DNA of 64,000 nt from the NCBI GenBank assembly GCA_048941265.1, contig JBHLNT010000001.1, forward strand, positions 46,540 through 110,539. Reading direction: 5' to 3'. Under the pieces are notes generated by a model. It did no database searches. It had not been told where the DNA came from and worked only from the letters and a program-made list of their open reading frames with translations. Origin of the DNA: Promethearchaeota archaeon. GTDB taxonomy: Archaea > Asgardarchaeota > Lokiarchaeia > Sigyniarchaeales > SOKP01. Below, in pieces: positions 1,312 to 25,357 of this stretch. Position 1 is the stretch's first letter. The number at the start of each line of letters is the position of its first letter. The position numbers were made by a program, and so were the translations under genes.

Positions 1312-2532
1312 ATGGAAAAAAATTTCCAAAAAAGATATTATTTAATATTTTTCTCTACAATTCTTGGACCACTTACAACAAATTCATTAGTTCCAATCTT
1401 TGAGGATTTAAGACTTAATTTTGGTTTAAATTCAATTGCTTTAGTTTCGCTAGCAATTTCATTTTATATTCTTCCCTTCGCTGTTTTCCAATTATTTGCG
1501 GGAACTTTTTCTGATATTGTTGATAAAAAAATTGTTTTAATAATAGGATTTATTATTTTTATATTAGGTTTGCTATTAAGTTTAATAGCCGTTTTAATTA
1601 AAGTGTTCTATTTATTTCTCTTTGGGTTTTTAATCCAAGGAATTGGTTTTTCTTTTATCAATCCTACAATTTTGGCAATATTGAGTATAATTTCTCCTGA
1701 AGATAAAAAGGGGATAAATATGGGAATTTATAACTCTTCATCAGGATTAGGTGTAAGTCTAGGAGCTCTTTTATCTGGATTTCTTGCTAATAATTTTAAG
1801 AGCGGTTGGGTTCTATTATTTATAATTAATCCCATCATAGCTTTCTTAGCGTTAATATTATTATTAATAGCATTAAAAAAATGCGAACCTCTAATTTGTA
1901 GAACTTTTGAGACAACAATAAAACATTCTGCAAATGATAAACCTTCTAAACTCTTTGCTACTTTTCAACAATTAAAAGATAATTTAAAGCTACCCATCCT
2001 TTTATTAGGTACTGCGGGATTCATCTGCTTTTTTATAGTTATAACATTGACGAATACTTTAAATGAACAATTACGGATTTCATTATCTGGTTTAAGTGAA
2101 CAAGAAGTCATTTTTTATGTGAGTTTGATTTTAACAATAAACGGATTGATATCTGTGCTCTTATCTCCTATAACTGGTTTAATGTTAAAAAAAATTAATC
2201 CAAATATAATGCTAGGTATAGGTTTTTTACTTATGTTTACAATGATTTTTATGCCTTATGGTACTTCCATAACTGATTTTATGGTTATTAGTTTCATAAC
2301 GTACATTGGTTCAGCATTTGTTTGGCCTGCGTTATTTAAAATTTCGATGAATATAAATCCTGAGGCAGAGGGTACAAATTCTGCCATAATAAATAGCTTA
2401 AGATTCATAGGTTATTCTTTAGTAGGCCCATTTTACTTATTCTTTGGAATTCCTATTATCTATTTTTGGGTGATTAGTCTTAATTTTGTAGCAATTATCG
2501 TAGTTATCATGTTAAGCAAATTGAAAGTTTAG
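1312..2532 (+). CDS. MFS transporter (DHA-like)
   Basis: About 12 hydrophobic segments; MFS motif A variant GTFSDIVDKK. Confidence 0.85.
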   Translation: MEKNFQKRYYLIFFSTILGPLTTNSLVPIFEDLRLNFGLNSIALVSLAISFYILPFAVFQLFAGTFSDIVDKKIVLIIGFIIFILGLLLSLIAVLIKVFYLFLFGFLIQGIGFSFINPTILAILSIISPEDKKGINMGIYNSSSGLGVSLGALLSGFLANNFKSGWVLLFIINPIIAFLALILLLIALKKCEPLICRTFETTIKHSANDKPSKLFATFQQLKDNLKLPILLLGTAGFICFFIVITLTNTLNEQLRISLSGLSEQEVIFYVSLILTINGLISVLLSPITGLMLKKINPNIMLGIGFLLMFTMIFMPYGTSITDFMVISFITYIGSAFVWPALFKISMNINPEAEGTNSAIINSLRFIGYSLVGPFYLFFGIPIIYFWVISLNFVAIIVVIMLSKLKV

Positions 2533-2539
2533 AAAAAGA

Positions 2540-3967
2540 TTATTTAATTTGGTTTTTACGTGCTTCTAAAATTTTAGCTCTTTCATTTAGGATATTTCTT
2601 ACTGTTTTTGAATCCTCTGGATACCATTTCAACGTAAAGAGCCATACCATAATGCCCGGGATTATAAATACCAATAACATTAAAATCGTTAATTGGTAAT
2701 TAGTTCCAGTCATAACTAATAATATTCCTACTATAATTGCTCCCAAGCCCCACCCTATACTCTCAACCAGTTGATTCCAAGACACTATCTTGCCCTGGGC
2801 TTCAGGTAAATTTATTTCTTGTATAAGGGGAGCTTGATTTACCATGAATAAGCTCCCAATCACGTTTGATGTAAAAAACAGCATACCCATTACCCAAATT
2901 ATTGGTAGAGAAAATAAATATGGAATGTCTTGTCCTTCAGATACAGAAAAATGAGGCAACGGAATAAAAAAGATAGCCACAAAACTTACCATTCCAAAAC
3001 TTAGCGAGAAGATTATAAAATAAATTCTCCTAATTGGATGTTCTTTGCAAACTTTATCAGAGAGCCAACCAAAAGCTAATTGCCCGATTAATCCTGCGGT
3101 TAATCCAAACACAATCATAAAGACCGCAGTAAATATAGGGGAAAGATTATGAGGAGGAGTTTGAATATAAGGCAAAATTAACAGAATGGCACTTCCCATT
3201 AGAATATTCGAAGAAATACCCTCTACTAGGGCAACTATATTAGTTTTGCTGAACATGGTTTTTTTCATCATTTCACGATCAATTTGAAAATCATACTTAA
3301 TATCATCATGTTTAAGAATCTGCATTAATTCTATTTGTTGAGCACCTCTCTTTGGCTCATCCATATGTATGAAAAAGATGAATCCAGCAAGTACTATTAA
3401 TACGCCTAAACCCCAAAAATATTCCCTCCAAAAACCATATTGGACAAAAAAGGAAGCTACTAAAAATCCAAATGTCATAAATAATCCCATCATGAGCCCC
3501 ATGACGCCAAAAAAACGTGATCTATGGGATTTTGGAACCAGATCATTTGAGAGAGAAGCAATTGAGGGCCACGATCCCCCTGCGAATAAAGCAAAAATGA
3601 ATATAAAAAATAAGAAATAAAGCCATGTCTCAAAACCTTTTCCCTCTTCCGCAAAACCCAACATAGCAATGCTAAAACCTCTAAAAATGGAAATCATAAA
3701 GAGGATTTTCGTACGACTAAATTTATCGATTAACATTCCAAAAAAAAGACCGCATAAAGAGGAAACCCAAAATAATACAGTTAACAATATCCCAATTTCT
3801 AAGGCATGATAGGGCTCATCTGGCCACATTATAAGAGATAATTGAACAATTAAGATGGTGAAACCAGCATAGGCCAAAGTTTGAAGACCTCCCAGGAGAT
3901 AGAGAGACCAAAAAGTTCCATGTATTGAGAATTCTGAATTTGATGTATCAGCAGGTTCCTCTGGCAT
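2540..3967 (-). CDS. MFS transporter, Spinster-like features
   Basis: 12-TM pattern, GMLIDKFSR and GWLSDK motif A copies, WREYF...DEPKRG after TM6. Confidence 0.8.
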   Translation of the reverse strand: MPEEPADTSNSEFSIHGTFWSLYLLGGLQTLAYAGFTILIVQLSLIMWPDEPYHALEIGILLTVLFWVSSLCGLFFGMLIDKFSRTKILFMISIFRGFSIAMLGFAEEGKGFETWLYFLFFIFIFALFAGGSWPSIASLSNDLVPKSHRSRFFGVMGLMMGLFMTFGFLVASFFVQYGFWREYFWGLGVLIVLAGFIFFIHMDEPKRGAQQIELMQILKHDDIKYDFQIDREMMKKTMFSKTNIVALVEGISSNILMGSAILLILPYIQTPPHNLSPIFTAVFMIVFGLTAGLIGQLAFGWLSDKVCKEHPIRRIYFIIFSLSFGMVSFVAIFFIPLPHFSVSEGQDIPYLFSLPIIWVMGMLFFTSNVIGSLFMVNQAPLIQEINLPEAQGKIVSWNQLVESIGWGLGAIIVGILLVMTGTNYQLTILMLLVFIIPGIMVWLFTLKWYPEDSKTVRNILNERAKILEARKNQIK

Positions 3968-4190
3968 AATTTTTTTATACCATATTATCTTTTTAGTTTT
4001 AAACTGTAGAATGAGATTTCAAATTTTAAGATATTGAAAAGTAAATATGAGAATTAACCATTATTATAAGATAAGACTTAAGAAAAAAATTTGAGATTTA
4101 AAATACGATGTAATTTTTTGATACTTATTTTTATAAACCTTGATCTCGTTTATATTTACAATGTCTTATAAATAAATTAAATTTAATAAA

Positions 4191-5594
4191 ATGAGCGTAT
4201 CTCAAAAACAAAATGTAGGTTCTGATGAATCTAGATATTCTTCTAAAATTCATTTATCATATAGCCTTGGGAGCTTTTTCGACACTTTTTACGTGGCAAG
4301 TTTTACTGTCCGCGTTATATATTTTTACGAGAATGAACTCTTCTTATCCATTGTATTGATAGGTACTGCTTTTATTATATATGGTTTTTGGAATATGATC
4401 AACGATCCTTTGATTGGGTGGTTTGCAGATAAAGAAACGCGATTTACTAAGCGATGGGGTCGGAGATTTCCATGGTTTTTTATAGGCGCTATAAGTATAA
4501 ATTTTGTTTATATTTTTATATATACAGTTCCTGTTAACGATCAATTAGGAATGTTTATATGGCTGCTGGTAATTATTTGTTTATTTGAATTATGTTATTC
4601 TCTTTGGCAAGTTAGTTGGCTTTCTCTCTATCCCGATAAGTTTCGCTCCCAGAAGGAACGAACGAAATTAGGAGCATTAACTACCATATTTGGTCAATTA
4701 GGGACAGTTATGGGAATTGTGATTCCTCCTTTATTTATCATATATGGAAATGTCGAATCTTATATTTTTGCCGCGATAGCAGTAGCTATTATTTCGCTTA
4801 TAATCGCCTTGCTCATTATTCCAGGTATGCACGAGGATGAAGATATAATCGCACGCGAACTTAAAAACATCCAAGAACAAAAGAAAGAAGAGGAATCGTA
4901 CTTACAAATAGTAAAATTCTCTATGAAGGAAAAAAATTTTGTCGCTTATGTTCTATGGTATCTTTGCTATTATATGCTTCCCTTATTGATGCTCTCATCA
5001 CTTTCTTATTGGGTCATTTATATTGTAAAATATAGAAATCCAATGATAGAAACATTATTAGCGGGGATTTTTATGATAGGTGCCTTAGTATCAGTTCCGT
5101 TATGGTTAAAAATGGGGAGAAAGTTTGGTATACGAAAGATTTACATTTATGGGAGTTTGATGGCTTCAATTTGCTTTATTCCGCTGATATTCGTTTCTGA
5201 TCTAACTCTCACTCTTACATTTCTTTTTCTAATTGGATTTTTCTATGGATCTTGTTGGACATTATTATATCCCGGATTCTCTGAGGTAATGGATGAGCTT
5301 GTGGTCAAAAGTGGAGAACGTAGAGAAGGTGCTTACACAGGAATTAGAACCTTTATTGGACGGTTGTCCTTTGTGCTACAAGCGGTCATTTTCTCAATAG
5401 TTCATACCACCACAAAATTCGAAGCTGGAGCAGAAACCCAAAAACCATTAGCATTATGGGGAATACGAATTATCATGGTAATAGCTCCAATGGTATTTCT
5501 TTTCATTGGTTTCCTTCTTATGGCAATCTTCTATGATCTTACCCCCGAAAAAGTGAACGCTAATAAAGCTCTATTGAAAGAAAAGAATTTTTAA
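4191..5594 (+). CDS. MFS_2 / glycoside-pentoside-hexuronide (MelB-like) symporter
   Basis: WNMINDPLIGWFAD, WGRRFPW, GERREGAYTG, FYDLT motifs. Confidence 0.9.
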   Translation: MSVSQKQNVGSDESRYSSKIHLSYSLGSFFDTFYVASFTVRVIYFYENELFLSIVLIGTAFIIYGFWNMINDPLIGWFADKETRFTKRWGRRFPWFFIGAISINFVYIFIYTVPVNDQLGMFIWLLVIICLFELCYSLWQVSWLSLYPDKFRSQKERTKLGALTTIFGQLGTVMGIVIPPLFIIYGNVESYIFAAIAVAIISLIIALLIIPGMHEDEDIIARELKNIQEQKKEEESYLQIVKFSMKEKNFVAYVLWYLCYYMLPLLMLSSLSYWVIYIVKYRNPMIETLLAGIFMIGALVSVPLWLKMGRKFGIRKIYIYGSLMASICFIPLIFVSDLTLTLTFLFLIGFFYGSCWTLLYPGFSEVMDELVVKSGERREGAYTGIRTFIGRLSFVLQAVIFSIVHTTTKFEAGAETQKPLALWGIRIIMVIAPMVFLFIGFLLMAIFYDLTPEKVNANKALLKEKNF

Positions 5595-7014: not shown

Positions 7015-7776
7015 ATGAAAAACGACCAGTTAATAGAAAAACTCCGAAAACGGGAACTTAAAGCAGTAGTATTTGATTTCGATGGTACAATCTTAGATAT
7101 TAAGAAACCTCTTGAAAAATCTATTGAAGAAGTCTTTACTGAGAAAGGTATTGCTTCTGACTTAGAATCATCTGTACTTGAAATTGGTGCTGTGCTCGAA
7201 TCTATACAAGGATACCCTATTCCTAAAATTTTACTGCAATCATATGACATTTTCCAACAGATAACAACGCTAGAAAAATTAACTTTCTTAAAAAAATTTA
7301 GAGTTGCCTTGAAAATTTTCGCTAAATATCAAACTTATTCTAAAGAGGCTGAATTATTCCCCGGTATAAAACCACTATTAGAATATCTAAATAAAGGTGC
7401 AGACCTTTATATTATCTCTCATAATCAAACAAATAGTGTTAGAGAACACCTTCAAAAAGAAGAAATTGAAAAGTATTTCAAAGGAGTATATGGAGCTGAT
7501 GAATTGCCTGCATTAAAACCAAGTCCTGATGCCCTTTTACCTGTCATAGAGCAATACAAAAATACCAGCAGTAAGAAATTTTTGATCTTAGGTGATATGC
7601 CATCTGATATTGAATCTGGTCAAGAAGCAGGAGTTCATACCATTGGAATCGCTAGTGGAATCAGTAAGAAGGAGATACTGGAGAATTGTAATCCCGATTT
7701 ATTATTCGATTCAATTATTGAATTGAATGAATTACTTGGTATAAATAATGGTCGTAGTTCGGATTCTAAAGTTTAA
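7015..7776 (+). CDS. HAD-superfamily phosphatase
   Basis: Motif I FDFDGT, motif III KPSP, motif IV GDMPSD. Confidence 0.9.
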   Translation: MKNDQLIEKLRKRELKAVVFDFDGTILDIKKPLEKSIEEVFTEKGIASDLESSVLEIGAVLESIQGYPIPKILLQSYDIFQQITTLEKLTFLKKFRVALKIFAKYQTYSKEAELFPGIKPLLEYLNKGADLYIISHNQTNSVREHLQKEEIEKYFKGVYGADELPALKPSPDALLPVIEQYKNTSSKKFLILGDMPSDIESGQEAGVHTIGIASGISKKEILENCNPDLLFDSIIELNELLGINNGRSSDSKV

Positions 7777-7809
7777 AATTAAAAATTATAAAAAATAAAA
7801 CATAAAAGG

Positions 7810-9504
7810 TTGATGAATATGGAACTTGAAAAATCAGATATAAAACCAACAAAGAAAGAAAAAATTGGTAAAGAACAAGTAGATTATGATGTAGTGGAAC
7901 AAGAACTAGAGCTTAAGTATGAAAAAACGTCTCATGATGCGATGTATAAAGTTTTAAAATATAATCCTATCGACTGGTTAAATGATAAGTACCGAAAATT
8001 TATTGATATGCATCAATTAACTGAGATTGAGGGTCAATTACAATGGTGGGCTGCATATATTTACGTTAAGGAAATCCTAAGGTTACTTTTCGATCATAAA
8101 GTAGAAAATCCCTATAAGACTTTATTTCCTGAATATGGCCCTGGAATCATCATCTCAAATCATGAAAGCCATTTTGATCCATTTTTTATTGGAGCTACAT
8201 GTCATAGACGTATTCGATGGATGAGTAAAATTGAAAACTTTAAGACACCAATTGTAAGAACTTTGTTTACAAATTTAGGTGCTTTTAGACTTGATAGAGA
8301 TAACCCTGAACCAGGTTGGGAGATGGCAAAAGAAGTGATTGATAATGGAGGATGGGTTGGAATCTTTCCAGAAGGCACTCGCACAGAAGATGGGTCTCTT
8401 GGTGAATTTCATACTGGTGCGGTAAGGCTAGCAATAGAAAAGAAAGTACCTATTGTTCCGACATGTGTAATCGGTTCAAGAGCAGCACTACCGAAAGGCA
8501 AATTGGTTTTAAAACCAGCTCGTGTAATTACTCGTGCAGGACTTCCGATTTCCTATGATCAATATAACATTGATACTGTATCATATCAAGATATTAGAAG
8601 ACTTTCAGATGAATTACGACAGGAAGTTATTGATTTAATGGAAGGTAATTACCACATTGAAGGTGAAGAAAAGGTTCAACAGCTTTCCATAGGGGAACCT
8701 AAGGATATGGCAGAAAAGCCAAAAGGTAATCCTGTTATGAAATTCTTTAAAAAACTCTCAGCACATTTCTTACAATTATGGGATGATTCTTGGTATGCCC
8801 TCTTAAAATCTTTAGAAGTCTATGGTTTAAAAGATTACTTTGGATCATTCATATATAATTTATCGGGTAATATCGTTCATAGCCTCTGCAACCTTATGCT
8901 TCCATATAAAGTCATTGACTACGACAAATATATTCCCAAAAAAGCTGAAACTGGTGCCCTTATATGCTCAAATCATAATTCAGAATGGGATGTAATAATA
9001 CTAGCAACAAGTTTTCAGCAATGGGGTGGTCATTATATCTATCAACAATCAAAAGAATCACTCTTTAGATATCCTGTTGTAAACGCTTGGGTAAGGTCTT
9101 GTAGAGCATTTCCACTTAAAAGAGGTGAGCACGATGTTGGTTCTTATAATTATGCTTTAGAACGCTTAAAAGAGGGAAAATGGATAGTAATCTATCCAGA
9201 AGGCACAACTAATACGGGAGGCGGGAAATTATTAGAAGGACACACTGGTGCTATGCGTTTAGCTATAGAAGCAAAAGTTCCAATTTATTTAGTTGGAATC
9301 ACTGGAACTGAAGATGTCTATCCAAAACGGGCCAAAATGCTTAATTTCAATAAAGGAGTTATATTGAAAGCAGGAGAACCATTTATGGAGCATCAAAATT
9401 ACTGGGACAAACCTATGCCTAGCTATAGTGAATTAAGGAATCTTACCACAAAAATGATGGCAAGAATAAAAGACTTGCTTATGTATGACGATAAACGAGC
9501 ATAA
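7810..9504 (+). CDS. tandem two-domain PlsC/LPLAT glycerolipid acyltransferase
   Basis: Domain 1 NHESHFD...FPEGTR...VPIVP; domain 2 NHNSEWD...YPEGTT...VPIY; both keep the HX4D catalytic dyad. Confidence 0.9.
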   Translation: MMNMELEKSDIKPTKKEKIGKEQVDYDVVEQELELKYEKTSHDAMYKVLKYNPIDWLNDKYRKFIDMHQLTEIEGQLQWWAAYIYVKEILRLLFDHKVENPYKTLFPEYGPGIIISNHESHFDPFFIGATCHRRIRWMSKIENFKTPIVRTLFTNLGAFRLDRDNPEPGWEMAKEVIDNGGWVGIFPEGTRTEDGSLGEFHTGAVRLAIEKKVPIVPTCVIGSRAALPKGKLVLKPARVITRAGLPISYDQYNIDTVSYQDIRRLSDELRQEVIDLMEGNYHIEGEEKVQQLSIGEPKDMAEKPKGNPVMKFFKKLSAHFLQLWDDSWYALLKSLEVYGLKDYFGSFIYNLSGNIVHSLCNLMLPYKVIDYDKYIPKKAETGALICSNHNSEWDVIILATSFQQWGGHYIYQQSKESLFRYPVVNAWVRSCRAFPLKRGEHDVGSYNYALERLKEGKWIVIYPEGTTNTGGGKLLEGHTGAMRLAIEAKVPIYLVGITGTEDVYPKRAKMLNFNKGVILKAGEPFMEHQNYWDKPMPSYSELRNLTTKMMARIKDLLMYDDKRA

Positions 9505-9523
9505 GAAGCGAGAGGTTTAACTG

Positions 9524-10603
9524 GTGGAAGCGACGGAAAAATCGTCAGGTACAAAAATCAAGGTTGGTATACCTAGAGCACTTCATTTTTATAGGTACTT
9601 TCCTTTTTGGAAAAAACTTCTTGAAGAATTAGATGTGGAAATTATATTAACACCTAACACTAACAAGAAGATTGTAGAGGAAGGTGTAACTCATGGGTTT
9701 GGTGAGTTATGTATACCTGTAAAAATTTATTATGGACATGTAATGAAATTAATACGGGAACATCCCGATTTAGATTTCTTATTTGTACCTCGATATGTTT
9801 CAGAAGTAAAAGAAGCATACTTTTGTCCTAAATTTCTGTCGTTACCAGATGTCATAAAAATTTTGCCGAACGCTCCAAAACTTTTGACTTTTGAAGTTAA
9901 TATAAAAGAATTTCCAATTGCCACAGCAGCCGCTGAACTTGCTAAACAATTAGGAAAAAGCCAATCTAAAGGATTAGATGCATATAAGAAAGCGCAAGAA
10001 TATTTTGATGAGTATCATAAATTTTTAAGGGAAGGTGCCCCTGTCAATCATGCACTACGATTAGTAGAATATAACCGTCCTTTCACTTTGCCAAAAAAGA
10101 AACGTAAGGGCGATATTAAGTTCTTGTTATTAGGACATGCATATAATATTTTTGACACATTTATTAATCTAGATTTTCAAAAAAAATTACAAGATCAAAA
10201 TGTTGAGGTTTTAACTATTGAAAATCTGCCAGAATCAATATTCAAGGTACCAGTTATCGTGAATAGGCGTTTGAGAAACTATTGGAGACATGAGGAGGAA
10301 ATCATGCAATCAATTAGGTACTTTATGACGAAAGGACGAAAAGAAATCGATGGAGTGGTTTTTCTTATTAGTTTTGCTTGTGGACCCGACAGTCTCATTT
10401 CCGAGTTAATAATGAGAGATATGAAAGTCGTAGGGCTTCCATTTTTAGAGATAATAATGGATGAACATTCTGGTGAGGCGGGTTTGCTTACAAGAGTTGA
10501 AAGTTTCGTAGAGATGGTAAGAAGGAAGAAGCAAAAACTCTCAGAATTAGAAAACAAGCAAAAACTTGGAGTTTTAGAAGAGATTGATACTTCATTTGCC
10601 TAG
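9524..10603 (+). CDS. DUF2229 / acyl-CoA dehydratase activase-related Fe-S protein (PlsA reduction-domain-like)
   Basis: KVGIPRAL, ELCIPVKIYYGH, FCPKF, FACGPD, DEH motifs. Confidence 0.85.
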   Translation: MEATEKSSGTKIKVGIPRALHFYRYFPFWKKLLEELDVEIILTPNTNKKIVEEGVTHGFGELCIPVKIYYGHVMKLIREHPDLDFLFVPRYVSEVKEAYFCPKFLSLPDVIKILPNAPKLLTFEVNIKEFPIATAAAELAKQLGKSQSKGLDAYKKAQEYFDEYHKFLREGAPVNHALRLVEYNRPFTLPKKKRKGDIKFLLLGHAYNIFDTFINLDFQKKLQDQNVEVLTIENLPESIFKVPVIVNRRLRNYWRHEEEIMQSIRYFMTKGRKEIDGVVFLISFACGPDSLISELIMRDMKVVGLPFLEIIMDEHSGEAGLLTRVESFVEMVRRKKQKLSELENKQKLGVLEEIDTSFA

Positions 10604-10616
10604 GAGGTATTAAAAA

Positions 10617-11801
10617 ATGTTAATTTCCTTTCCAAATATGGGCCCAAACTGGGTAGCATTCAAATCTTTATTCGAGTCTTTGGATTTAGATGTCATCGTA
10701 CCTGACCCCACAAACCGAGAAGCGATTAAAGTAGGTGTTAAATATAGCCCAGAATTCGTATGTTTCCCATTTAAGGCCACCCTCGGAGATTTTAAAAATG
10801 CATTGGATAAAGGTGCTGATACTCTCGTGATGGCAATTGATTGCGGACCATGTCGCTTTGGCTTCTATGCTTCTGTTCAAGAGAGACTTTTGAGGGATAT
10901 GGGTTATGATGATTTTACATTAATTCCCTTAGATCAAGCAGACTTACTCAATTTTAAATGGGTAAAAGCTCTTGAAGAAATTTCAGGAATGCAAGGTTTA
11001 GTTAAATATCCTAAATTTGTAAAGGCTGTCATCATATTTTTAAAAAAAGCTAAATTGTTAGATGATATTCAGACTGCAGAAGGTCTTTTCAGGGCTTATG
11101 AACGGAATCAAGGAGATACTACTCGTACTGTAAAAAATTTATTAAATTATCTTGATCAAACCAATTCCATTTCTGAATTACGTAAATTTCGAAAGGTAAT
11201 TTTAGATTTATTTAGTCGGATTGATATTGATAAAAATATTAGTCCTTTGAGAGTAGGGCTTTCAGGTGAGATTCATATAAGTTTAGAACCATATGTTAAT
11301 CTAGATATTCGGAGAAAATTGGGTGAAATGGCGGTTGAGATCCATCAATCTCTAAGTCTATATGATTGGGTAGTCCATAAATTTCACTTAAATTATCACA
11401 GAAAATGGCTTGAACATCTTGCCCGACCGCATGTACCGATGGATATAGGCGGAGAATGTGTCTGGGTATTAGGAGAATATATAGATAAAGGCAAGGCATC
11501 CTTCGATGGCTTCGTTCATGAATATCCGTTTACGTGCATGCCGGAAGTTGTAGCCCGGACGATTATTACTAATAAGCTTAAGAAAATATATGATTTACCG
11601 GTATTATTTTTCTCCTTCGATGAACAGAGTGGTCTTGAGGGATTTCGTACCCGTCTTGAAGCGTTTTGCGACCTCATGCATTCCCGACGTGATCAAGAAA
11701 TAAAAAATAATCCCGAATTTTCGGCAATAGGAAAGAAGATTTATCCACATTTTGGAAATCATTTTTATGATGAATGTTATCAAATAATTAAAGCTTCATA
11801 G
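10617..11801 (+). CDS. 2-hydroxyacyl-CoA dehydratase-family Fe-S subunit (PlsR-like)
   Basis: CFPFKATLG, GPCRFG, PFTCMPE, DEQ motifs; GGAGG SD upstream. Confidence 0.8.
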   Translation: MLISFPNMGPNWVAFKSLFESLDLDVIVPDPTNREAIKVGVKYSPEFVCFPFKATLGDFKNALDKGADTLVMAIDCGPCRFGFYASVQERLLRDMGYDDFTLIPLDQADLLNFKWVKALEEISGMQGLVKYPKFVKAVIIFLKKAKLLDDIQTAEGLFRAYERNQGDTTRTVKNLLNYLDQTNSISELRKFRKVILDLFSRIDIDKNISPLRVGLSGEIHISLEPYVNLDIRRKLGEMAVEIHQSLSLYDWVVHKFHLNYHRKWLEHLARPHVPMDIGGECVWVLGEYIDKGKASFDGFVHEYPFTCMPEVVARTIITNKLKKIYDLPVLFFSFDEQSGLEGFRTRLEAFCDLMHSRRDQEIKNNPEFSAIGKKIYPHFGNHFYDECYQIIKAS

Positions 11802-11815
11802 AGGATATATGGAAG

Positions 11816-12838
11816 ATGGTACAAGTTTCAGATAAAATTATTAAAGACGATGGTAAAAAAGACGCATTTTTAGGTATAGATGTAGGGTCAGTATCCCTTA
11901 AATTCGTGTTAATGGATAGAGATGGTAATGTGCTTACTTCAGTTTTTCTCAGAAATCGTGGTTCTCCTATTGATTCCGTTAAAGATGGAATGTCAAAATT
12001 GAGGGAGCAAATAGAAGCAGATGATAATTTACAAGGATATGCAATTCGTGCATGTGGAACTACTGGATCTGCGAGATATTTAACTAAAGCGGTTGTAGGA
12101 GGCGACATTGCAAAAACAGAGATCATTGCCCACGCAGTAGGGGCTCAATCAGAATATCCGGATGTACGCACAATTTTAGAGATTGGAGGGCAAGATTCTA
12201 AAATAATTATTCTTCGTGATGGAATCATAGTGGATTTTGCTATGAATTCTGTTTGTGCCGCAGGTACCGGCTCATTCCTTGACCACCAAGCGTCGAGATT
12301 AGATCTACCCATCGAAGAATTTGGTGATTGGGCGGTAAAATCGAAAAATCCTTTATCAATCGCGGGCAGGTGTACTGTTTTTGCCGAATCAGATATGATT
12401 CATAAGCAAAACGCAGGGTATTCTCGAGAAGATATTATTGCGGGATTATGTGATTCATTAGTACGAAATTATCTAAATAATTTAGCTAAAGGAAAAGAAT
12501 TAGAAGAACCCGTTGTCTTTCAAGGGGGAGTATCCTTTAATAAGGGTATTGTTCAAGCCTTTGAAAGACATTTAAACTGCAAAGTTGTAGTCCCAAAATA
12601 TAATGTACTGATGGGAGCTCTTGGAATGGCAATTCTTGTTAGAGACCATTTCTTGCGTAATGAGACTGAAACTGCTTTTAGAGGGCTTGAAGTAGCAGAA
12701 ATTAAATTTGTAACCTCTGCTTTTAATTGTGGGGATTGTCCCAATAATTGTGAAATTATCCAGGTAAAAATGCCCGAATTGGGCAATGAAGTAATAGCCC
12801 GCTGGGGCAGCAGATGTGGAAAATGGGAGGTGTTTTAA
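11816..12838 (+). CDS. acyl-CoA dehydratase activase (HgdC/BadFG/BcrAD ASKHA ATPase with 4Fe-4S)
   Basis: GIDVGSVS, GTTGS, EIGGQDSK, MNSVCAAGTGSFLD, AGRCTVFAESD, FQGGV, C-terminal CGDCPNNC. Confidence 0.92.
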   Translation: MVQVSDKIIKDDGKKDAFLGIDVGSVSLKFVLMDRDGNVLTSVFLRNRGSPIDSVKDGMSKLREQIEADDNLQGYAIRACGTTGSARYLTKAVVGGDIAKTEIIAHAVGAQSEYPDVRTILEIGGQDSKIIILRDGIIVDFAMNSVCAAGTGSFLDHQASRLDLPIEEFGDWAVKSKNPLSIAGRCTVFAESDMIHKQNAGYSREDIIAGLCDSLVRNYLNNLAKGKELEEPVVFQGGVSFNKGIVQAFERHLNCKVVVPKYNVLMGALGMAILVRDHFLRNETETAFRGLEVAEIKFVTSAFNCGDCPNNCEIIQVKMPELGNEVIARWGSRCGKWEVF

Positions 12839-13047
12839 AAACGTCCAAACTTTTAAAAGATTTTTTAGAATTAGGAAAAGAGTTAGGAAAGGAAATTTTT
12901 GAGACGGCTAGCCATAGGGCTAAGCTTTCAACAATTTTTGATTTATTTACAGAAAAAGTTATACCCTCTTTCGTTTCCGAAAAGGAACTGAAAGAATATT
13001 ATGAAAAAAGAATGGAAGAAGTAAATGATTTTATTATTAAATTATAA
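12814..13047 (+). CDS. small hypothetical protein in the lipid operon (start uncertain)
   Basis: Fills the gap between activase and next gene on the same strand; amphipathic helical composition. Confidence 0.55.
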   Translation: MWKMGGVLKTSKLLKDFLELGKELGKEIFETASHRAKLSTIFDLFTEKVIPSFVSEKELKEYYEKRMEEVNDFIIKL

Positions 13048-13062
13048 GAGGAGGAAAAAAAT

Positions 13063-13752
13063 ATGGCTCAAAATGTAGCAATATCGGAAGAAGAAAAACC
13101 AAAATTAAATAAAAAACAATTACAGGAGGATGCTTTATACGGTCTAGCTAAAGCAGTAGGAGGTGCCGTATTAAAGAATTTTGCGGGGTTAAAACTCGAA
13201 GGGGAAGAAAATATCCCTTATAGAGGAAGAGCAATCTTAACAACTATAAGTAAAAATGTAATACGTGATATGCTAATTTTATCACAATTGACAGGCAGAA
13301 AAATCCATTTCATGCTACCAGCGAAATTGATGAAACATCAAGTTGCGGGTCCAATATTTAAATCTCTTGGGATGATTCGAGGTACAGAGAGTAAAGATGA
13401 TACTGAACCGATTGATAAAGTATTCGAAATCATAAATGAAAAAGGGGATTTAGTTGCTATGACCCCGGAAGCAAAATATGATCGAGATATACAAGTCAAA
13501 TCCGTGGCAGGTATAATTAAATTCGCTGTAGCTGCTAATGCTCCAATAATTCCAATCGCAGTGACTAAAGAAAAGGCAAAATTATTTAATTTGATAACTA
13601 TCGATGGTATAAAGGTAAAGGTTGGTAAGCCTATTCCTGTTTCAAAGAATTTAAGTCGAGAAAAATACCGCGATCAGAGATATGAATTAGCTGAGGACAT
13701 AGTGAACATTATCGATTCTCTAAAATATACGCCAGAACAAGATGAGGACTAA
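13063..13752 (+). CDS. PlsC/LPLAT-fold protein lacking the catalytic His (possibly inactive)
   Basis: EGEENIP, IHFM, TPE, APIIPIAV, VKVGKPI present; HX4D replaced by SKNVIRD; GAGGAGG SD. Confidence 0.75.
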   Translation: MAQNVAISEEEKPKLNKKQLQEDALYGLAKAVGGAVLKNFAGLKLEGEENIPYRGRAILTTISKNVIRDMLILSQLTGRKIHFMLPAKLMKHQVAGPIFKSLGMIRGTESKDDTEPIDKVFEIINEKGDLVAMTPEAKYDRDIQVKSVAGIIKFAVAANAPIIPIAVTKEKAKLFNLITIDGIKVKVGKPIPVSKNLSREKYRDQRYELAEDIVNIIDSLKYTPEQDED

Positions 13753-13785
13753 TAATTAGAAAATTAGATAAAAAATAAAAAAGGA

Positions 13786-14061
13786 GTGAAAAAAGATATG
13801 GAAAATCAAGATAATCCAAATATAGAAAAAGCTAAAATTGATTTACCGGAATATACCAAAAAATTAGAAGAAAAGGCAAAAGAGGCTCTAAACCCGGATA
13901 AGATGAAAGAGATGATTTCAGATTTGAAAGTAGACAATGTTGTAGGGGACCTTTTCTATGAATCTGTAAAGCTATTCTTTGATATTGGATTCGATCTTGC
14001 TGATAAGCTAAATCTTGATTTAATTCAAGATTTTATCAAAAAAGATAATGAGAAAAAATAA
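13786..14061 (+). CDS. small acidic/amphipathic hypothetical protein
   Basis: Last ORF of the + strand run, followed by T-tracts. Confidence 0.65.
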   Translation: MKKDMENQDNPNIEKAKIDLPEYTKKLEEKAKEALNPDKMKEMISDLKVDNVVGDLFYESVKLFFDIGFDLADKLNLDLIQDFIKKDNEKK

Positions 14062-18820: not shown

Positions 18821-21541
18821 CTATTGATACTTTTTCTTAAGATATTTATCAATAGCTTTCGCTGTTCTTTTTCCAGCACCCATGGCAGATATCACAGTAG
18901 CACTCCCAGTTACTATATCTCCACCAGCAAATACACCCTCTAGGTTGGACTGACCATTCTCATCAATTTCAATATAACCCCTTTTATTTAATTTTAGATC
19001 AGGGATTGTTTTGATGAGAGTTGGATTGGCTCTAGTTCCAATAGCAATGATAATTGTGTCTGTTTCTATTAGATACTCTGAGCCCTGAATTGATATGGGA
19101 CGCCTTCTCCCAGATTCATCAGATTCTCCTAACTCCATCTTAATTACTTCCATAAACCTTACATTAGCATTCTCATCCCCTAAGAACCGTACTGGATTTG
19201 TTAAAAATTTGAACTCAATCCCTTCCTCTTTAGTATGATGATATTCCTCTTTTCTTGCTGGCATTTCTACTTCGGATCTTCTATAGACGATAACGACTTT
19301 CTCCGCACCTAACCTGAGCGCTGTTCTTGCGGAATCTAAAGCTACGTTACCTCCTCCTATAACAGTTACTATTTTGCCAATTTTAATTGGTGTATCATAA
19401 TCAGGAAATCTATAAGCTTTCATTAAATTTGATCTTGTAAGAAATTCATTTGCCGTTAAAACACCGTTTAAATTTAATCCCTCAACATCCATAAGTATCG
19501 GTAATCCTGCACCAACTCCTATAAAAAATGCTTTAAATCCCATTTCTTTTAAATCCTCAAGATCTAAGGTCTTACCAATAAGAGTATTATATTGAATTTT
19601 GACATTTAGCATTTTTAATGTTTCAATTTCATCATTTACAATTTCTTTTGGCAATCTAAATTCAGGGATGCCATAGGTGAGCACACCACCTCCAGTATGG
19701 AATGCTTCAAAAATGGTAACATCATATCCTTCCATCGCTAATGTTCCGGCACATGTTATACCAGCAGGGCCTGAACCAATTACAGCAACTTTAATATCAT
19801 TAGGGAGTTTACAATCAGGACATTCTTTAAGTCTATTAGTTCTTTCCCAATCAGCAATAAATCTCTCCAAATAACCTATAGCTATAGGCTCTCCCAAAGT
19901 ATTTAATATACAAGTTTGTTCACATTGTATCTCCTGTGGACATACTCTTCCACAAATCGCAGGTAATAAATTGCGTGATTTAATTTCTCGAAGTGCTTCA
20001 AAATATTTCTCTTCTTTTAAAAGATTTATAAATTTAGGAATTCTAATCTTTACAGGACACCCTTCTACACAAAGAGGTTTACCACATTGTAAACACCTAT
20101 AGGTTTCTAATTTAACCATCTCTGTAGTTAAACCCTTAGAAACTTCTTCAAAGTTTGTAATTCTTATATCTGATTCTTGCTCAATCATGTAAGGCCTATG
20201 AAGCTTTCTATATTTATTAATTTTCGACTCCGCTATTCCACTAAGATTAATAAAATTTTTATTATCCTCCTGCATTTCGCGTGCAATAATCATATTCAGA
20301 TCTAATGCTTTTTGAAAAAATTCTGCACCCTTTTCAGTTCGAATTATCACAGTAGACCATCCATTCCCAGATCCAGCAGAGCCAACTGAAATATCGGCTT
20401 GTTCAGCTGTAAAATCATCACAATAGAAACAACCAAATCGACCATATTTTTTAATTCTTTCTATTGGTATATCATAAACTTTGTTATTTTTATTATAGAT
20501 AATAAATCTCTCTTTAGTGATGTCCATCTTCTTGATATCCCCCGGTCTACGTAGAAACTCGTTCTTTAAAAGTTCCACAATTTTCACATAGTCAAACGAT
20601 TCCATGCAAAAAACTCCGATCTTAATTACAATATTGTCATAAAATGATTTATTTAATGGATAGAAAGACATTTTTTTTAGTGCCTCCATTATACAAGGAG
20701 TGCCCACCACAGCAATATTCTGGTAATCCTTTAAATCATGTAAAATCTTTAAAGTAGGAGAATTTGTATATTTAGTACCCGCAGTTTTTAAAAGATCTTG
20801 TTCATTTTCGATAAATACTGGCATAGGTTTTAATGGTTCTACTGCAGTTCCAATAGCTAAAGCTCCATTAATCAACTTTTGTTGAAACGCCATTTTTAAT
20901 AATGATGTGACTACTCCCCCATCTTGAGCAACTCTTTTTATTTGAGTATTAGTTGTTTGAGCTATGTAGATATTATGATAGTAATTAAATTGTTCCAAAT
21001 ACTTTAAAACTGTAGAGCTGCTTTTTTGAGATCTTTTTAAAGTCATAGGAAAGAAAGCTCGTGGACAACAAGTATAACATAATCCACAATCAATGCAAGC
21101 ATCGTAATCAATTTCAAAAGTACTCTCATCATAAGCTATAGCTTCTATAGGACAGATTGATACACATAATCCACAGCCACAACAAAGATACGTTTCTCTA
21201 ATTAAGGAAGCATTAGGAAAAATTCTCTTTTTTTCAAATTCATCAATTTTTTCTTGGAAGAATCTCGGATTTTTACCAACATTTTCTAATAATCCTAATT
21301 CTTTTAAATACTCTAAATTATAGATTAAAAATTGTCTGGATAGATTTAATTCATTTTTAAGATTTTGAATGTCTATAATACCATGTTCCTTGATTTTTTC
21401 TAGAATTCTATATCTCTCTTGCTCAGCATCAATTACAGATTTAATGAAATTTTCATATTCAATTTCATTATATTTTCCTGCTTTTAGGATTTTATTTTTA
21501 TTATTTAAAAGTATTTGGATTAAAGGAGTCTGTTCTTCCAT
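18821..21541 (-). CDS. fusion: wHTH-like + 2[4Fe-4S] ferredoxin + FrhB (F420-binding) + NfnB/GltD NADPH flavoprotein (copy 2)
   Basis: CCGCGLCVSICP, CIDCGLCYTCCP; AQDGG, AGTKY, VGTPC, GVFCMESF, ADISVG; CLQC, CGRVCPQEIQCE, GSGPAG, GGGNVALD, AGGDIVTG. Confidence 0.9.
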   Translation of the reverse strand: MEEQTPLIQILLNNKNKILKAGKYNEIEYENFIKSVIDAEQERYRILEKIKEHGIIDIQNLKNELNLSRQFLIYNLEYLKELGLLENVGKNPRFFQEKIDEFEKKRIFPNASLIRETYLCCGCGLCVSICPIEAIAYDESTFEIDYDACIDCGLCYTCCPRAFFPMTLKRSQKSSSTVLKYLEQFNYYHNIYIAQTTNTQIKRVAQDGGVVTSLLKMAFQQKLINGALAIGTAVEPLKPMPVFIENEQDLLKTAGTKYTNSPTLKILHDLKDYQNIAVVGTPCIMEALKKMSFYPLNKSFYDNIVIKIGVFCMESFDYVKIVELLKNEFLRRPGDIKKMDITKERFIIYNKNNKVYDIPIERIKKYGRFGCFYCDDFTAEQADISVGSAGSGNGWSTVIIRTEKGAEFFQKALDLNMIIAREMQEDNKNFINLSGIAESKINKYRKLHRPYMIEQESDIRITNFEEVSKGLTTEMVKLETYRCLQCGKPLCVEGCPVKIRIPKFINLLKEEKYFEALREIKSRNLLPAICGRVCPQEIQCEQTCILNTLGEPIAIGYLERFIADWERTNRLKECPDCKLPNDIKVAVIGSGPAGITCAGTLAMEGYDVTIFEAFHTGGGVLTYGIPEFRLPKEIVNDEIETLKMLNVKIQYNTLIGKTLDLEDLKEMGFKAFFIGVGAGLPILMDVEGLNLNGVLTANEFLTRSNLMKAYRFPDYDTPIKIGKIVTVIGGGNVALDSARTALRLGAEKVVIVYRRSEVEMPARKEEYHHTKEEGIEFKFLTNPVRFLGDENANVRFMEVIKMELGESDESGRRRPISIQGSEYLIETDTIIIAIGTRANPTLIKTIPDLKLNKRGYIEIDENGQSNLEGVFAGGDIVTGSATVISAMGAGKRTAKAIDKYLKKKYQ

Positions 21542-21589
21542 TTTTAGATACCTTAACTTTAATCTAAGATACCTTACTTTTGTACTTTT

Positions 21590-24316: not shown

Positions 24317-24317
24317 T

Positions 24318-25202
24318 TTAAGATGCCTCACTTTCGTATTTTTCTAAGGCTCTGCATTCTCGATCATAGCACTCCGCTGACATTTTCTCTTGATCAAGAA
24401 ATCTATTTGCGCGTTTTAAAAGATTATCAAAATCAACTATATGTCCATCAACATCTGGACCATCAACACAGGCAAAATAAATATCACCATCGAGTGTTGA
24501 AAATCGACATCCACCACACATTCCAGTTCCATCAATCATTATTGTATTCAAAGAAACATATGTTTTTACTTTAGGAAAATTTCCAGATCCATTAGTTGTA
24601 AGAGTAACATACTTCATCATAATTAAAGGTCCAATTGCGATAACAAGACTAATCTTCTCTCGCATAATTAGTTCCTTAAGTGGTTCAGTGACAACTCCTT
24701 TTATCCCCTCACTTCCATCGTCAGTACAGATGATCAATTCATCACTTACTGAACGCATTTTTTCTCTCCAAAACAATAAATCCTTGTTTCTTGCACCTAT
24801 TATTGTTATAATTTTATTTCCTGCTTCTTTTAATTCCTTTGCTTGAGGATAACAAGGCGCAATTCCAATACCACCGCCTATAATGACAACCGGATATTCA
24901 TATTTTTCAATATGAATTTTATTTCCAAGAGGTCCCACAATATCAAGAATCTCATCTCCCACGTTTTGATGAGAAAGTAATTTTGTACTTTTTCCAACAA
25001 CTTGGACTACTATGGTTATGGTTCCCTTTTCTCGATCATAATCTGCTATAGTTAAAGGAAACCGTTCACCCGTCTCATTAATTCTTATTAGAATAAAATT
25101 TCCTCCATGAGCTTTTCTTGATATGAGTGGCGTATCTAATACCATTTCATATACTTGACCACTATTCCCAAGTTCTCGTTTTTCTAAAATTTTAAAAGGC
25201 AA
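24318..25202 (-). CDS. nfnA: NfnA/SudB-type FAD/NAD-binding [2Fe-2S] subunit of electron-bifurcating transhydrogenase
   Basis: ERFPLTIAD, GPLG, GGGIGIAP, DGTGMCGGCR...CVDGP. Confidence 0.88.
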   Translation of the reverse strand: MPFKILEKRELGNSGQVYEMVLDTPLISRKAHGGNFILIRINETGERFPLTIADYDREKGTITIVVQVVGKSTKLLSHQNVGDEILDIVGPLGNKIHIEKYEYPVVIIGGGIGIAPCYPQAKELKEAGNKIITIIGARNKDLLFWREKMRSVSDELIICTDDGSEGIKGVVTEPLKELIMREKISLVIAIGPLIMMKYVTLTTNGSGNFPKVKTYVSLNTIMIDGTGMCGGCRFSTLDGDIYFACVDGPDVDGHIVDFDNLLKRANRFLDQEKMSAECYDRECRALEKYESEAS

Positions 25203-25357
25203 TACTTTTTCCCCTTTTAGTTTAAAATACTTCCAAATTCTAAGAATTCTAAAATTATTTTGATTTTTTTAAATTTTTGATTATGATTTAGAAGAAAAAT
25301 TCAAAAAGAAAAAACTTTTTCTGTAGTTGATATTTGAAATTTTATCTTTTTCTAAAG

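Follow-up and report, generated by a model that had tools for sequence, protein, structure and literature searches.

A conserved operon of one Asgard archaeal class pairs PlsC-fold acyltransferases with a split DUF2229 reductase: a candidate route to fatty-acid-based ether lipids

Introduction

To our knowledge, PlsA/PlsR and Ger are the only known anaerobic enzymes that turn an ester into an ether. Published accounts describe PlsA/PlsR as the anaerobic plasmalogen synthase of Clostridium perfringens (CPE1194/1195), with PlsA built as Act1-Act2-Red1 and PlsR as Red2. Fused single-gene forms of PlsA are reported from Enterococcus, Lactococcus, Bifidobacterium, and Listeria, and the single-gene PlsA/PlsR fusions of facultative anaerobes are given as 4.2-4.9 kb long. 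Ger, the glycerol ester reductase, is described from Thermotoga maritima (Tmari_0479) and Desulfatibacillum alkenivorans (SHJ90043); the published architecture of the T. maritima protein is BBDHDDH, and the same source gives its BBD core as conserved in all alkyl-ether producers. In this study, we analyzed a stretch of 64,000 nucleotides (nt) from a Promethearchaeota archaeon (Lokiarchaeia; contig JBHLNT010000001.1 of assembly GCA_048941265.1, positions 46,540 to 110,539), hereafter called the window. It contains an eight-gene operon at positions 7015-14061, in which PlsC-fold acyltransferase genes stand next to separate genes for an activase and two reductase modules of the PlsA/PlsR/Ger type. 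Judging from sequence, we regard the chances as evenly balanced that this operon would be a self-contained module in which an acyl ester is made and then reduced to an ether.

PlsC and PlsY homologues in Loki- and other Asgard archaea, as well as "Ger homologues" in Lokiarchaeota and Heimdallarchaeota, have been published earlier, but separately. We found no publication on this operon or on the split form of the reductase in the literature on PlsA/PlsR, Ger, DUF2229/PF09989, Asgard lipids, and plasmalogens. A published Ger screen (Sci Adv 2022), by its own account, required a query coverage of at least 30%. Because proteins of 340-394 amino acids (aa) cover less than 30% of a ~1400-aa query, this screen would miss the split form, and it probably reported fused forms.

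The operon and its genes

The open reading frame (ORF) listing of the window gives eight plus-strand ORFs at 7015-14061, at exactly the coordinates named in an earlier account of this DNA made from the letters alone (hereafter the sequence-only reading). They are as follows:

HAD, 7015..7776, plus strand: HAD-IA type phosphatase, 253 aa, motif I DFDGT
PlsC2x, 7810..9504, plus strand: two tandem PlsC/LPLAT domains, 564 aa, both with HX4D and (F/Y)PEGT
DH1, 9524..10603, plus strand: module-1 subunit of a split DUF2229 reductase/dehydratase, 359 aa; counterpart of the PlsA C-terminal part (Red1)
DH2, 10617..11801, plus strand: module-2 subunit, 394 aa; counterpart of PlsR/Red2
ACT, 11816..12838, plus strand: stand-alone ASKHA activase, 340 aa, with a C-terminal CxxCxxxC...C extension
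s77, 12814..13047, plus strand: small protein, 77 aa, without Cys; its first 25 nt lie inside the ACT gene
PlsCx, 13063..13752, plus strand: PlsC-fold protein without the catalytic His, 229 aa, probably non-catalytic
s91, 13786..14061, plus strand: small charged protein, 91 aa; the least conserved operon member

The gaps between consecutive genes are 33, 19, 13, 14, -25 (an overlap), 15, and 33 nt. HAD is preceded by 182 nt of free DNA, and the gene downstream of s91 lies on the opposite strand. The gene content that the sequence-only reading had assigned to the cluster was borne out by the ORF listing, Pfam, NCBIfam, and motif checks. A promoter and terminator scan of this archaeal DNA with bacterial consensus patterns gave no excess over shuffled sequences, and an Rfam search of all 64 kb yielded nothing at or above the gathering scores, tRNAs included.

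The split reductase and its fused relatives

DH1 carries DUF2229 (PF09989) at 156.7 bits over profile positions 1-217 of 218, followed by a 60-residue HGD-D tail. DH2 matches the first ~60 DUF2229 positions (37.3 bits) and has an HGD-D tail as well. The HGD-D (PF06050) matches cover profile positions 282-341 only and score 26.4 (DH1) and 18.7 bits (DH2) against a Pfam cut-off of 28.4; a full-length HGD-D match, as in HgdAB/HadBC subunits, was found in neither protein. The sequence match to HadB in the PDB (E 8e-4) is also confined to the tail. The sequence-only reading had described a DUF2229 protein together with a 2-hydroxyacyl-CoA-dehydratase-like subunit. Its DUF2229 part holds; its classic dehydratase subunit gives way to a pair of paralogous modules, both of the DUF2229/HGD-D-tail type.

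A search of 1.84 billion representatives with DH1 collapsed the Asgard DH1 family into one representative, followed by a few proteins at 39-46% identity and then by ~330-aa stand-alone and ~700-aa proteins at about 27-39%; no ~1400-aa protein was among the best 150 matches. The search among longer proteins returned three groups, namely FAD-domain fusions (42-44% identity), DH1-DH2 fusions of 685-784 aa from Dehalococcoidia, Chloroflexi, and Bacillota (26-35%), and proteins of ~1000-1500 aa, mostly ~1400-aa BB-DH1-DH2 proteins (26-32%). By phmmer, both proteins can be aligned over their full length with the ~1400-aa BB-DH1-DH2 proteins, DH1 at residues ~650-1000 and DH2 at ~1000-1400. In the ~700-aa DH1-DH2 fusions, DH1 corresponds to the N-terminal half and DH2 to the C-terminal half; therefore, the gene order DH1-DH2 is collinear with the fused enzymes.

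Both modules share cysteines with their fused relatives. Cys63, Cys101, and Cys286 of DH1 are invariant in 75/75 rows of split and fused forms, including the Listeria and Fusobacterium proteins described below, and Cys49, Cys79, and Cys307 of DH2 are present in 49/50 rows of split and fused forms. A further DH2 cysteine, Cys76, lies three residues before Cys79 (CGPC) and occurs in 12/12 Asgard-operon rows, 1/13 other split rows, and 0/23 fused rows. By alignment, tree, and cysteines, DH2 is the second module equivalent to PlsR/Red2. The AlphaFold2 model of DH1 (pLDDT 78.5) appears to adopt the common BCR/HAD/DCCP radical-enzyme fold. Its top Foldseek matches are 3o3n_B, 7yyl_A, 6eno, 9g87, and 8s02 (E 3e-10 to 7e-7), with HadB/C, DCCP, and benzoyl-CoA reductase subunits as the nearest structures at TM scores of about 0.45-0.5 and 11-15% identity.

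A tblastn search with DH1 against a plasmid collection gave 10 records, four of which were used as anchors: a 1475-aa fused gene of Listeria monocytogenes (25% identity), a 975-aa plus 404-aa pair of Fusobacterium animalis, a 1282-aa gene of Paraclostridium bifermentans, and, from Monoglobus pectinilyticus, a cassette of separate DH1, DH2, and activase genes that follow one another as in the window. DH1 aligns with the Listeria, Fusobacterium, and Paraclostridium proteins, and DH2 likewise with the Listeria protein and the Fusobacterium pair. From its architecture, we infer that the Listeria 1475-aa gene is the plsA/plsR orthologue named in a review, according to which such Listeria orthologues appear active under anaerobiosis. 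The Monoglobus cassette, known from annotation only, consists of the same three genes (193.7 bits for DH1, 204.7 for DH2, and 357.8 for the activase), and its activase has the same four-cysteine (Cys4) motif as ACT. In that locus (L097:7013-10498), the gene after the cassette encodes an 81-aa TSCPD-domain protein (TIGR03905) that is unrelated to s77.

Set beside PlsA/PlsR, the window trio shows the same parts, that is, an activase, a DUF2229 module 1, and a module 2, in collinear arrangement, with three cysteines per module and a Cys4 motif after the activase. The activase, however, is a single separate gene after the modules, whereas PlsA has two tandem activase domains fused before module 1; the BBD core, with its two tandem BcrAD_BadFG domains fused before DUF2229, is thus not present. 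In addition, the window genes share an operon with PlsC genes, whereas none lies near the Listeria, Fusobacterium, or Paraclostridium loci. Ger belongs to the same superfamily (PF01869, PF09989, and PF06050) and is likewise of the anaerobic, Fe-S dependent enzyme type, but by its published description, on which this comparison relies, it is one ~BBDHDDH polypeptide, and the window lacks the BBD core as a fusion. HadBC/HgdAB, DCCP, and the class I benzoyl-CoA reductases share the fold of the DH1 model and an activase core with ACT. They differ in the low identity, in the match of DH1 and DH2 to the HGD-D tail alone, and in solved activators without the Cys4 motif.

Phylogeny of the modules

Trees of 117, then 125 module sequences were built with the IQ-TREE quick search (LG+G4, SH-aLRT) after six mis-cut module rows from four proteins had been dropped. 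They were made without experimentally verified PlsA, PlsR, and Ger sequences and without HgdAB sequences, and long branches were flagged for the rows from locus L014 and Paraclostridium. DH1 and DH2 modules separate with a support of 100. All activase-fused forms make up one clade in each half (DH1, 25 rows, SH-aLRT 100; DH2, 23 rows, 98), which includes the Listeria, Fusobacterium, and Paraclostridium proteins and a PlsA/PlsR-like pair from the Asgard locus L014. The window DH1 and DH2 fall outside these clades; their own clade holds the Asgard operon sequences, the FAD-fused paralogues, and a few other representatives (20 rows, support 97).

The sequence-only reading had placed the trio with PlsA/PlsR and Ger. 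As to homology this stands: the trio is of the PlsA/PlsR/Ger type and not classic HgdAB, because it combines a full-length DUF2229, collinearity with both modules, the shared cysteines, and the Cys4 motif of Act2. As to position in the tree it does not, since the modules lie outside the activase-fused clade in a separate split subfamily.

The activase

ACT matches BcrAD_BadFG at 161.5 bits (Pfam) and CoA_E_activ at 194.5 bits (NCBIfam). The C-terminal CxxCxNxC that had been read from the sequence is found near its end as CGDCPNNC, with a fourth Cys beyond it. Cys147 and Cys186 are common to 25/25 aligned activase domains, and the four C-terminal residues Cys305, 308, 312, and 334 occur in 3/3 solo activases, in 10/11 Act2 domains, and in 0/11 Act1 domains. 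The ACT core matches HadI with an E value of 5e-39. The solved activators HadI, HgdC, MbdQ/P, and DCCP-R have 243-276 residues and align to ACT residues 18-284 only; since the alignment ends at residue 284, they lack the Cys4 extension. On these alignments, the Cys4 motif would be a feature of the PlsA/PlsR/Ger family, which is our own observation and not a published criterion.

The acyltransferases

PF01553 is found twice in PlsC2x (E 1.2e-54, Pfam), and the AGP_acyltrn domain reaches 157 bits against an NCBIfam cut-off of 103. Two intact HX4D sites, as claimed earlier for a double PlsC, are indeed seen, with HESHFD at residue 118 accompanied by FPEGT and HNSEWD at residue 389 accompanied by YPEGT. 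Domain 1 matches the T. maritima PlsC structure 5KYM (E 3.2e-13). In a hydropathy scan, the maximum 19-residue Kyte-Doolittle value is 1.08, and no 19-residue segment reaches 1.6; PlsC2x is predicted to be soluble. Soluble plastid glycerol-3-phosphate acyltransferases (GPATs) exist, and two of them, 1iuq and 1k30, are among the structure matches of the PlsCx model.

PlsCx matches PF01553 at 39.7 bits. The loss of its catalytic His, noticed in the sequence-only reading, extends to 16/16 orthologues, in which the His position of HX4D is K, D, or E; the alignment also shows MTPE[AS]K-type residues in place of FPEGTR and 57 invariant columns. Its AlphaFold2 model (pLDDT 79.9) has 5KYM as the best match (E 8.6e-7, TM 0.58). 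PlsCx is present in 14/21 loci with enough DNA after DH2, a protein atlas search returned only its own archaeal cluster, and a PlsCx-like sequence forms the third domain of fused 876-879-aa PlsC proteins in loci L095 and L096. From these residues, PlsCx is probably non-catalytic, and we would advance an adaptor role as speculation. The HX4D and FPEGT-type motifs of 5KYM are thus shared by both PlsC2x domains, and its fold is shared by the PlsCx model. Unlike 5KYM, the window has two catalytic domains fused, no predicted hydrophobic anchor, and a third, His-less PlsC-fold protein.

The phosphatase and the small proteins

HAD shows the features of a HAD phosphatase, with a match to HAD_2 (E 1.5e-27, 97.3 bits) and DFDGT as motif I. 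Its best NCBIfam match is phosphoglycolate phosphatase, at 95 bits against a cut-off of 225; because every equivalog model stays below its cut-off, HAD is not an equivalog and a substrate cannot be assigned. Of 57 loci, 41 have HAD at most 550 nt upstream of PlsC2x, 9 have it at a greater distance, and 7 lack it. In L095 and L096 it is placed between PlsC and DH1.

Neither s77 nor s91 belongs to a Pfam or NCBIfam family. s77 was found in 15/21 loci with enough DNA after DH2; a weak match (35% over 49 aa, E 0.007) lies directly after the activase of L096 (ACT'), and a protein atlas search with s77 gave no usable match. s91 has tblastn matches at 31-78% identity in 8/80 loci, and blastp detected it in 6 loci, with near full-length matches in 2.

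Linkage and distribution

Linkage was counted in 76 loci with a full-length DH1. PlsC2x lies at most 100 nt upstream of DH1 on the same strand in 61/71 loci with enough upstream DNA and elsewhere in the locus in the remaining 10. Of 43 loci, 16 have DH2 within 900 nt downstream of DH1, 10 have it at a greater distance, and 17 do not contain it; ACT adjoins DH2 in 16 of the 21 loci with enough DNA after DH2. Among five genomes without DH2 near DH1, four carry a DH2 orthologue elsewhere at 72-78% identity. In 27/76 cases, the contig ends at most 900 nt after DH1, and several of these tails hold scrambled DH1/DH2 pieces (loci L003-L082); such ends are probably assembly breakpoints caused by duplicated modules and no feature of the operon.

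The distribution was examined in a phylum sample of 301 genomes. At ≥67% identity, DH1 was found in 57/68 genomes of the window's family f1 (a few with only truncated or paralogous copies) and in the outliers G242 and G036, and PlsC2x in 60/68 genomes of f1. Three other families of the window's class, f2 (7/7 matched), f3 (1/1), and f4 (1/1), have DH1 orthologues at 41-47%; families f7 (24/28) and f29 (11/11) have relatives at 30-37% only. The other families of the phylum gave no DH1 match, including f9 (0/76), apart from the outlier G036 (f18). Most f2 genomes (6/7 matched) have single-domain PlsC genes at 31-37% identity.

An operon of the order PlsC(s)-(HAD)-DH1-DH2-ACT is present in 4/4 genomes of f2, f3, and f4 at 40-58% identity. 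In f2, it consists of PlsC, a degenerate PlsC, DH1, DH2, ACT, and a small gene, and the HAD gene is missing; in f3 and f4, a triple-PlsC protein of 876-879 aa, whose third domain is PlsCx-like, is followed by HAD, DH1, DH2, and ACT. Since only one HX4D is intact in each of these families, the conserved unit is made up, at the minimum, of the split reductase, an active PlsC, and a degenerate PlsC fold. The operon is also present in the closed genomes L014 and L093.

These counts uphold the linkage to acyltransferases on which the sequence-only reading relied, with PlsC2x adjoining DH1 in most loci and the operon recurring in three further families. As an Asgard-wide trait, the operon does not hold up, being confined to one class of the phylum sample. 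The idea of an extreme conservation across Asgard phyla was rejected likewise: locus titles naming Thor-, Odin-, Hermod-, and Hodarchaeota had suggested it, and because the cross-matched loci L016 (= G224) and L022 (= G293) fall in f1, identities of 67-84% are found within one family. Some titles (Odin-, Thor-, Hermod-, Hod-, and Borrarchaeota) disagree with the classification, L016 and L022 belonging to the window's family. The glycosyltransferase and the major facilitator superfamily (MFS) transporter upstream of HAD were considered and discarded as operon members, as a glycosyltransferase is near the operon in 0/80 loci and an MFS gene in 2/80.

Host genome and lipid-gene inventory

The source genome has 5.0 Mb in 361 contigs and is rated 91% complete. 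Its archaeal nature, which the sequence-only reading had presumed for the contig, is confirmed by archaeal/Promethearchaeota-type titles on 79/80 related loci (species-representative genomes), by an archaeal Taw2 gene inside the same 64-kb window, and by a geranylgeranylglyceryl phosphate (GGGP) synthase in the genome (PF01884, 187.7 bits). The base composition of the window is uniformly low in GC. The one exception among the 80 loci, L071, bears the name Candidatus Nanopelagicaceae bacterium. The Asgard operon is nevertheless found there (80% identity for DH1), and the contig is probably misbinned.

At this completeness, the only PF01553 domains found in the window's genome are the three of the operon, and PlsY (PF02660) was not found. 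A clear glycerol-3-phosphate (G3P) dehydrogenase was not found either, the best PF01210 match in the genome scoring 41.9 bits. In the Asgard family f7, PlsY is present in 26/26 genomes, usually in two or three copies, and DUF2229 in 25/26, with the match lying in a frame of at least 1000 aa in 20/26.

Paralogous cassettes and neighboring genes

In the closed Asgard chromosome L014 (11089-17070), DH1 is followed by a minus-strand 3-hydroxyacyl-CoA dehydrogenase gene and then by the PlsA/PlsR-like pair. The first member of this pair (865 aa) carries activase domains, the Cys4 motif, and DH1; the second (462 aa) is DH2-like and has no Pfam match. In some genomes of f1 (L027:11820-14237, L034:2374-4788, and L080:16216-18663), a paralogous cassette stands between DH1 and the true DH2. 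It comprises a ~815-aa fusion of a VAO-type FAD domain with a DH1-like part, an activase (53% identity), and a DH2-like gene (40%); in L027, a truncated N-terminal fragment of DH2 is left just upstream. Two ideas about the FAD-fused paralogue were dropped. The in-match TGA that might have encoded selenocysteine is the ordinary stop codon of the gene, and the relatives nearest to the FAD domain are cytokinin oxidases, DprE1, and EncM, with AGPS, the ether-lipid link considered, reaching only E 7e-5, so that no specific link emerged.

On the minus strand of the window, positions 18821-28114 hold three multidomain oxidoreductases of ~910 aa and a 294-aa Fe-S protein. Two of the former combine FrhB/FdhB, Fer4_20, and Pyr_redox_2, and the third has CCG domains. 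They could serve as a low-potential electron source, but in other loci they do not accompany the operon. Within the 64 kb there are also five genes for MFS transporters (1312-5594, 34812-36272, and 40906-42318), of which three belong to MFS_2/GPH. Positions 42757-44616 (minus strand) encode a protein resembling long-chain-fatty-acid-CoA ligases, and positions 62330-64000 one resembling acyl-CoA dehydrogenases.

Discussion

Taking the observed gene content, motifs, folds, homology, collinearity, and conserved linkage as the basis, we propose that the two intact PlsC domains of PlsC2x would attach a fatty acyl group by an ester bond to an acceptor of the glycerol(-phosphate) type. DH1 and DH2 would form a heterodimer with a [4Fe-4S] cluster bound in each module by the three invariant cysteines. 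An ATP-driven ACT homodimer would supply these clusters with a low-potential electron, and this three-subunit radical enzyme could then turn the ester carbonyl into an alk-1-enyl or alkyl ether, in the manner of bacterial PlsA/PlsR and Ger. HAD would probably remove a phosphate, and PlsCx would probably be a non-catalytic PlsC-fold partner. The acceptor, the acyl donor, the heterodimer and its clusters, the ether product and its vinyl or saturated state, and the roles of HAD, PlsCx, s77, and s91 are the parts of this scheme that we infer. The sequence-only reading had the cluster acylate glycerol-phosphate twice and then dephosphorylate it. That order of events fares badly, as the sister families keep only one intact HX4D domain and the f2 operon has no HAD gene; double acylation and the phosphatase step are the weaker parts of the earlier scheme.

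Several results weigh against a module that makes an ester and reduces it to an ether. The identity of DH1 to PlsA-type proteins is 25-32%, and the match of DH2 to the Listeria protein is weak (19.6 bits). Both modules lie outside the activase-fused clades, so that on the sequences compared the trio would be placed on the DUF2229 side of the superfamily as a distinct split subfamily without a characterized member. DH2-ACT is often only loosely linked to HAD-PlsC2x-DH1, and the closed genome L014 has no DH2 orthologue. The single intact HX4D domain in each of f2, f3, and f4 also counts here, as does the absence of PlsC and HAD genes from the neighborhood of the Monoglobus cassette. No membrane segment was predicted by hydropathy in any operon protein. 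PF01553 was found in 0/26 genomes of family f7 despite its DUF2229 proteins; therefore, DUF2229 enzymes are not tied to PlsC as such. From the literature, a published lipid analysis of a cultured Asgard archaeon is cited as reporting only archaeal lipids, and Coleman et al. are on record as judging archaeal PlsC/PlsY unlikely to act in membrane synthesis. In favor of the module, the f1 and f7 patterns together mean that DUF2229 reductases co-occur with a bacterial-type acyltransferase in two lineages.

A different use of the same genes would have the split DH1/DH2/ACT enzyme dehydrate or reduce a (hydroxy)acyl-CoA thioester, which then serves as an unusual donor that PlsC transfers to give a modified ester lipid or another acylated molecule. 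The solved structures nearest to the DH1 model speak for it, being 2-hydroxyisocaproyl-CoA dehydratase, DCCP, and benzoyl-CoA reductase subunits, and so do the position of the split subfamily outside the clade of PlsA/Ger architecture and its lack of a characterized member, the Monoglobus DH1-DH2-ACT cassette without an acyltransferase nearby, and the 3-hydroxyacyl-CoA dehydrogenase gene after DH1 in L014. However, the HGD-D matches are 60-residue tails below the Pfam cut-off and the HadB sequence match is confined to the tail, whereas the PlsA/Ger side is indicated by the full-length DUF2229, by the collinearity, and by a Cys4 motif of the Act2 type; moreover, the ORF listing and Pfam show no CoA-transferase or amino-acid fermentation genes within the operon. 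We consider the thioester route rather unlikely, with a real share of the probability all the same.

The identity of the acceptor leads to another possibility, in which PlsC acylates an isoprenoid mono-ether such as geranylgeranylglyceryl phosphate and the reductase yields hybrid isoprenoid/n-alkyl diethers. The canonical GGGP synthase of the genome and the lack of a clear G3P dehydrogenase there fit such a product, as does the one intact HX4D kept across families, which suits a single acylation; published work further indicates that PlsC enzymes accept both glycerol-phosphate stereoforms, and a chimeric lipid of this kind has been proposed earlier for Lokiarchaeota. Against it, none of the loci examined has a prenyltransferase gene within the operon or next to it, and in the tested cases described, PlsA and Ger act at sn-1 of diacyl lipids; we consider the hybrid product improbable. 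A small probability also goes to scavenging or remodeling, in which lysolipids from bacterial partners would be re-acylated in an Aas-like manner and then modified by the reductase. PlsC2x does match the acyltransferase part of the Aas-type acyl-ACP-phospholipid O-acyltransferase, but its 84.8 bits are far under the cut-off of 1221; and the transporter and long-chain-fatty-acid-CoA-ligase-like genes of the window agree with uptake, but the adjoining MFS gene recurs near the operon in just 2/80 loci and the glycosyltransferase in none. That the cluster is bacterial contamination, or a recent transfer without a role in the archaeon, is very improbable. PlsC and DUF2229 families are mainly bacterial, and published trees read archaeal PlsC as acquired from Bacteria, but DH1 and PlsC2x occur in most of the sampled f1 genomes and the operon in two closed ones, the window has an archaeal Taw2 and a uniformly low GC content, and the Asgard sequences form their own clade in the trees.

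Whether fatty-acid-based lipids exist in the archaeal relatives of eukaryotes is the long-standing question of the "lipid divide". Prior evidence consisted of scattered single-gene homologues, which the operon turns into one defined and conserved unit of five to eight genes. This unit holds every PlsC-fold enzyme found in the genome and ties them to a relative of the ester-to-ether enzymes. As a tentative proposal, held with clearly less than even confidence, the Asgard class itself may make fatty-acid-derived ether glycerolipids by a dedicated soluble machine whose PlsC-fold proteins pass an acyl ester on to an ATP-driven radical reductase of three subunits. The products would be plasmalogen-like or alkyl, possibly on an archaeal backbone, and one PlsC-fold protein would be a catalytically dead adaptor. 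If true, this would be an archaeal branch of ester-to-ether chemistry, distinct from PlsA/Ger and overlooked by published homology screens. Independently of the product, DUF2229 enzymes have a widespread split form. Since the cluster is small enough to be expressed as a whole and carriers within the same taxonomic order include a closed genome, the question of fatty-acid lipids can be put directly to the test, with the operon as a candidate archaeal route to ether lipids built from fatty acids.

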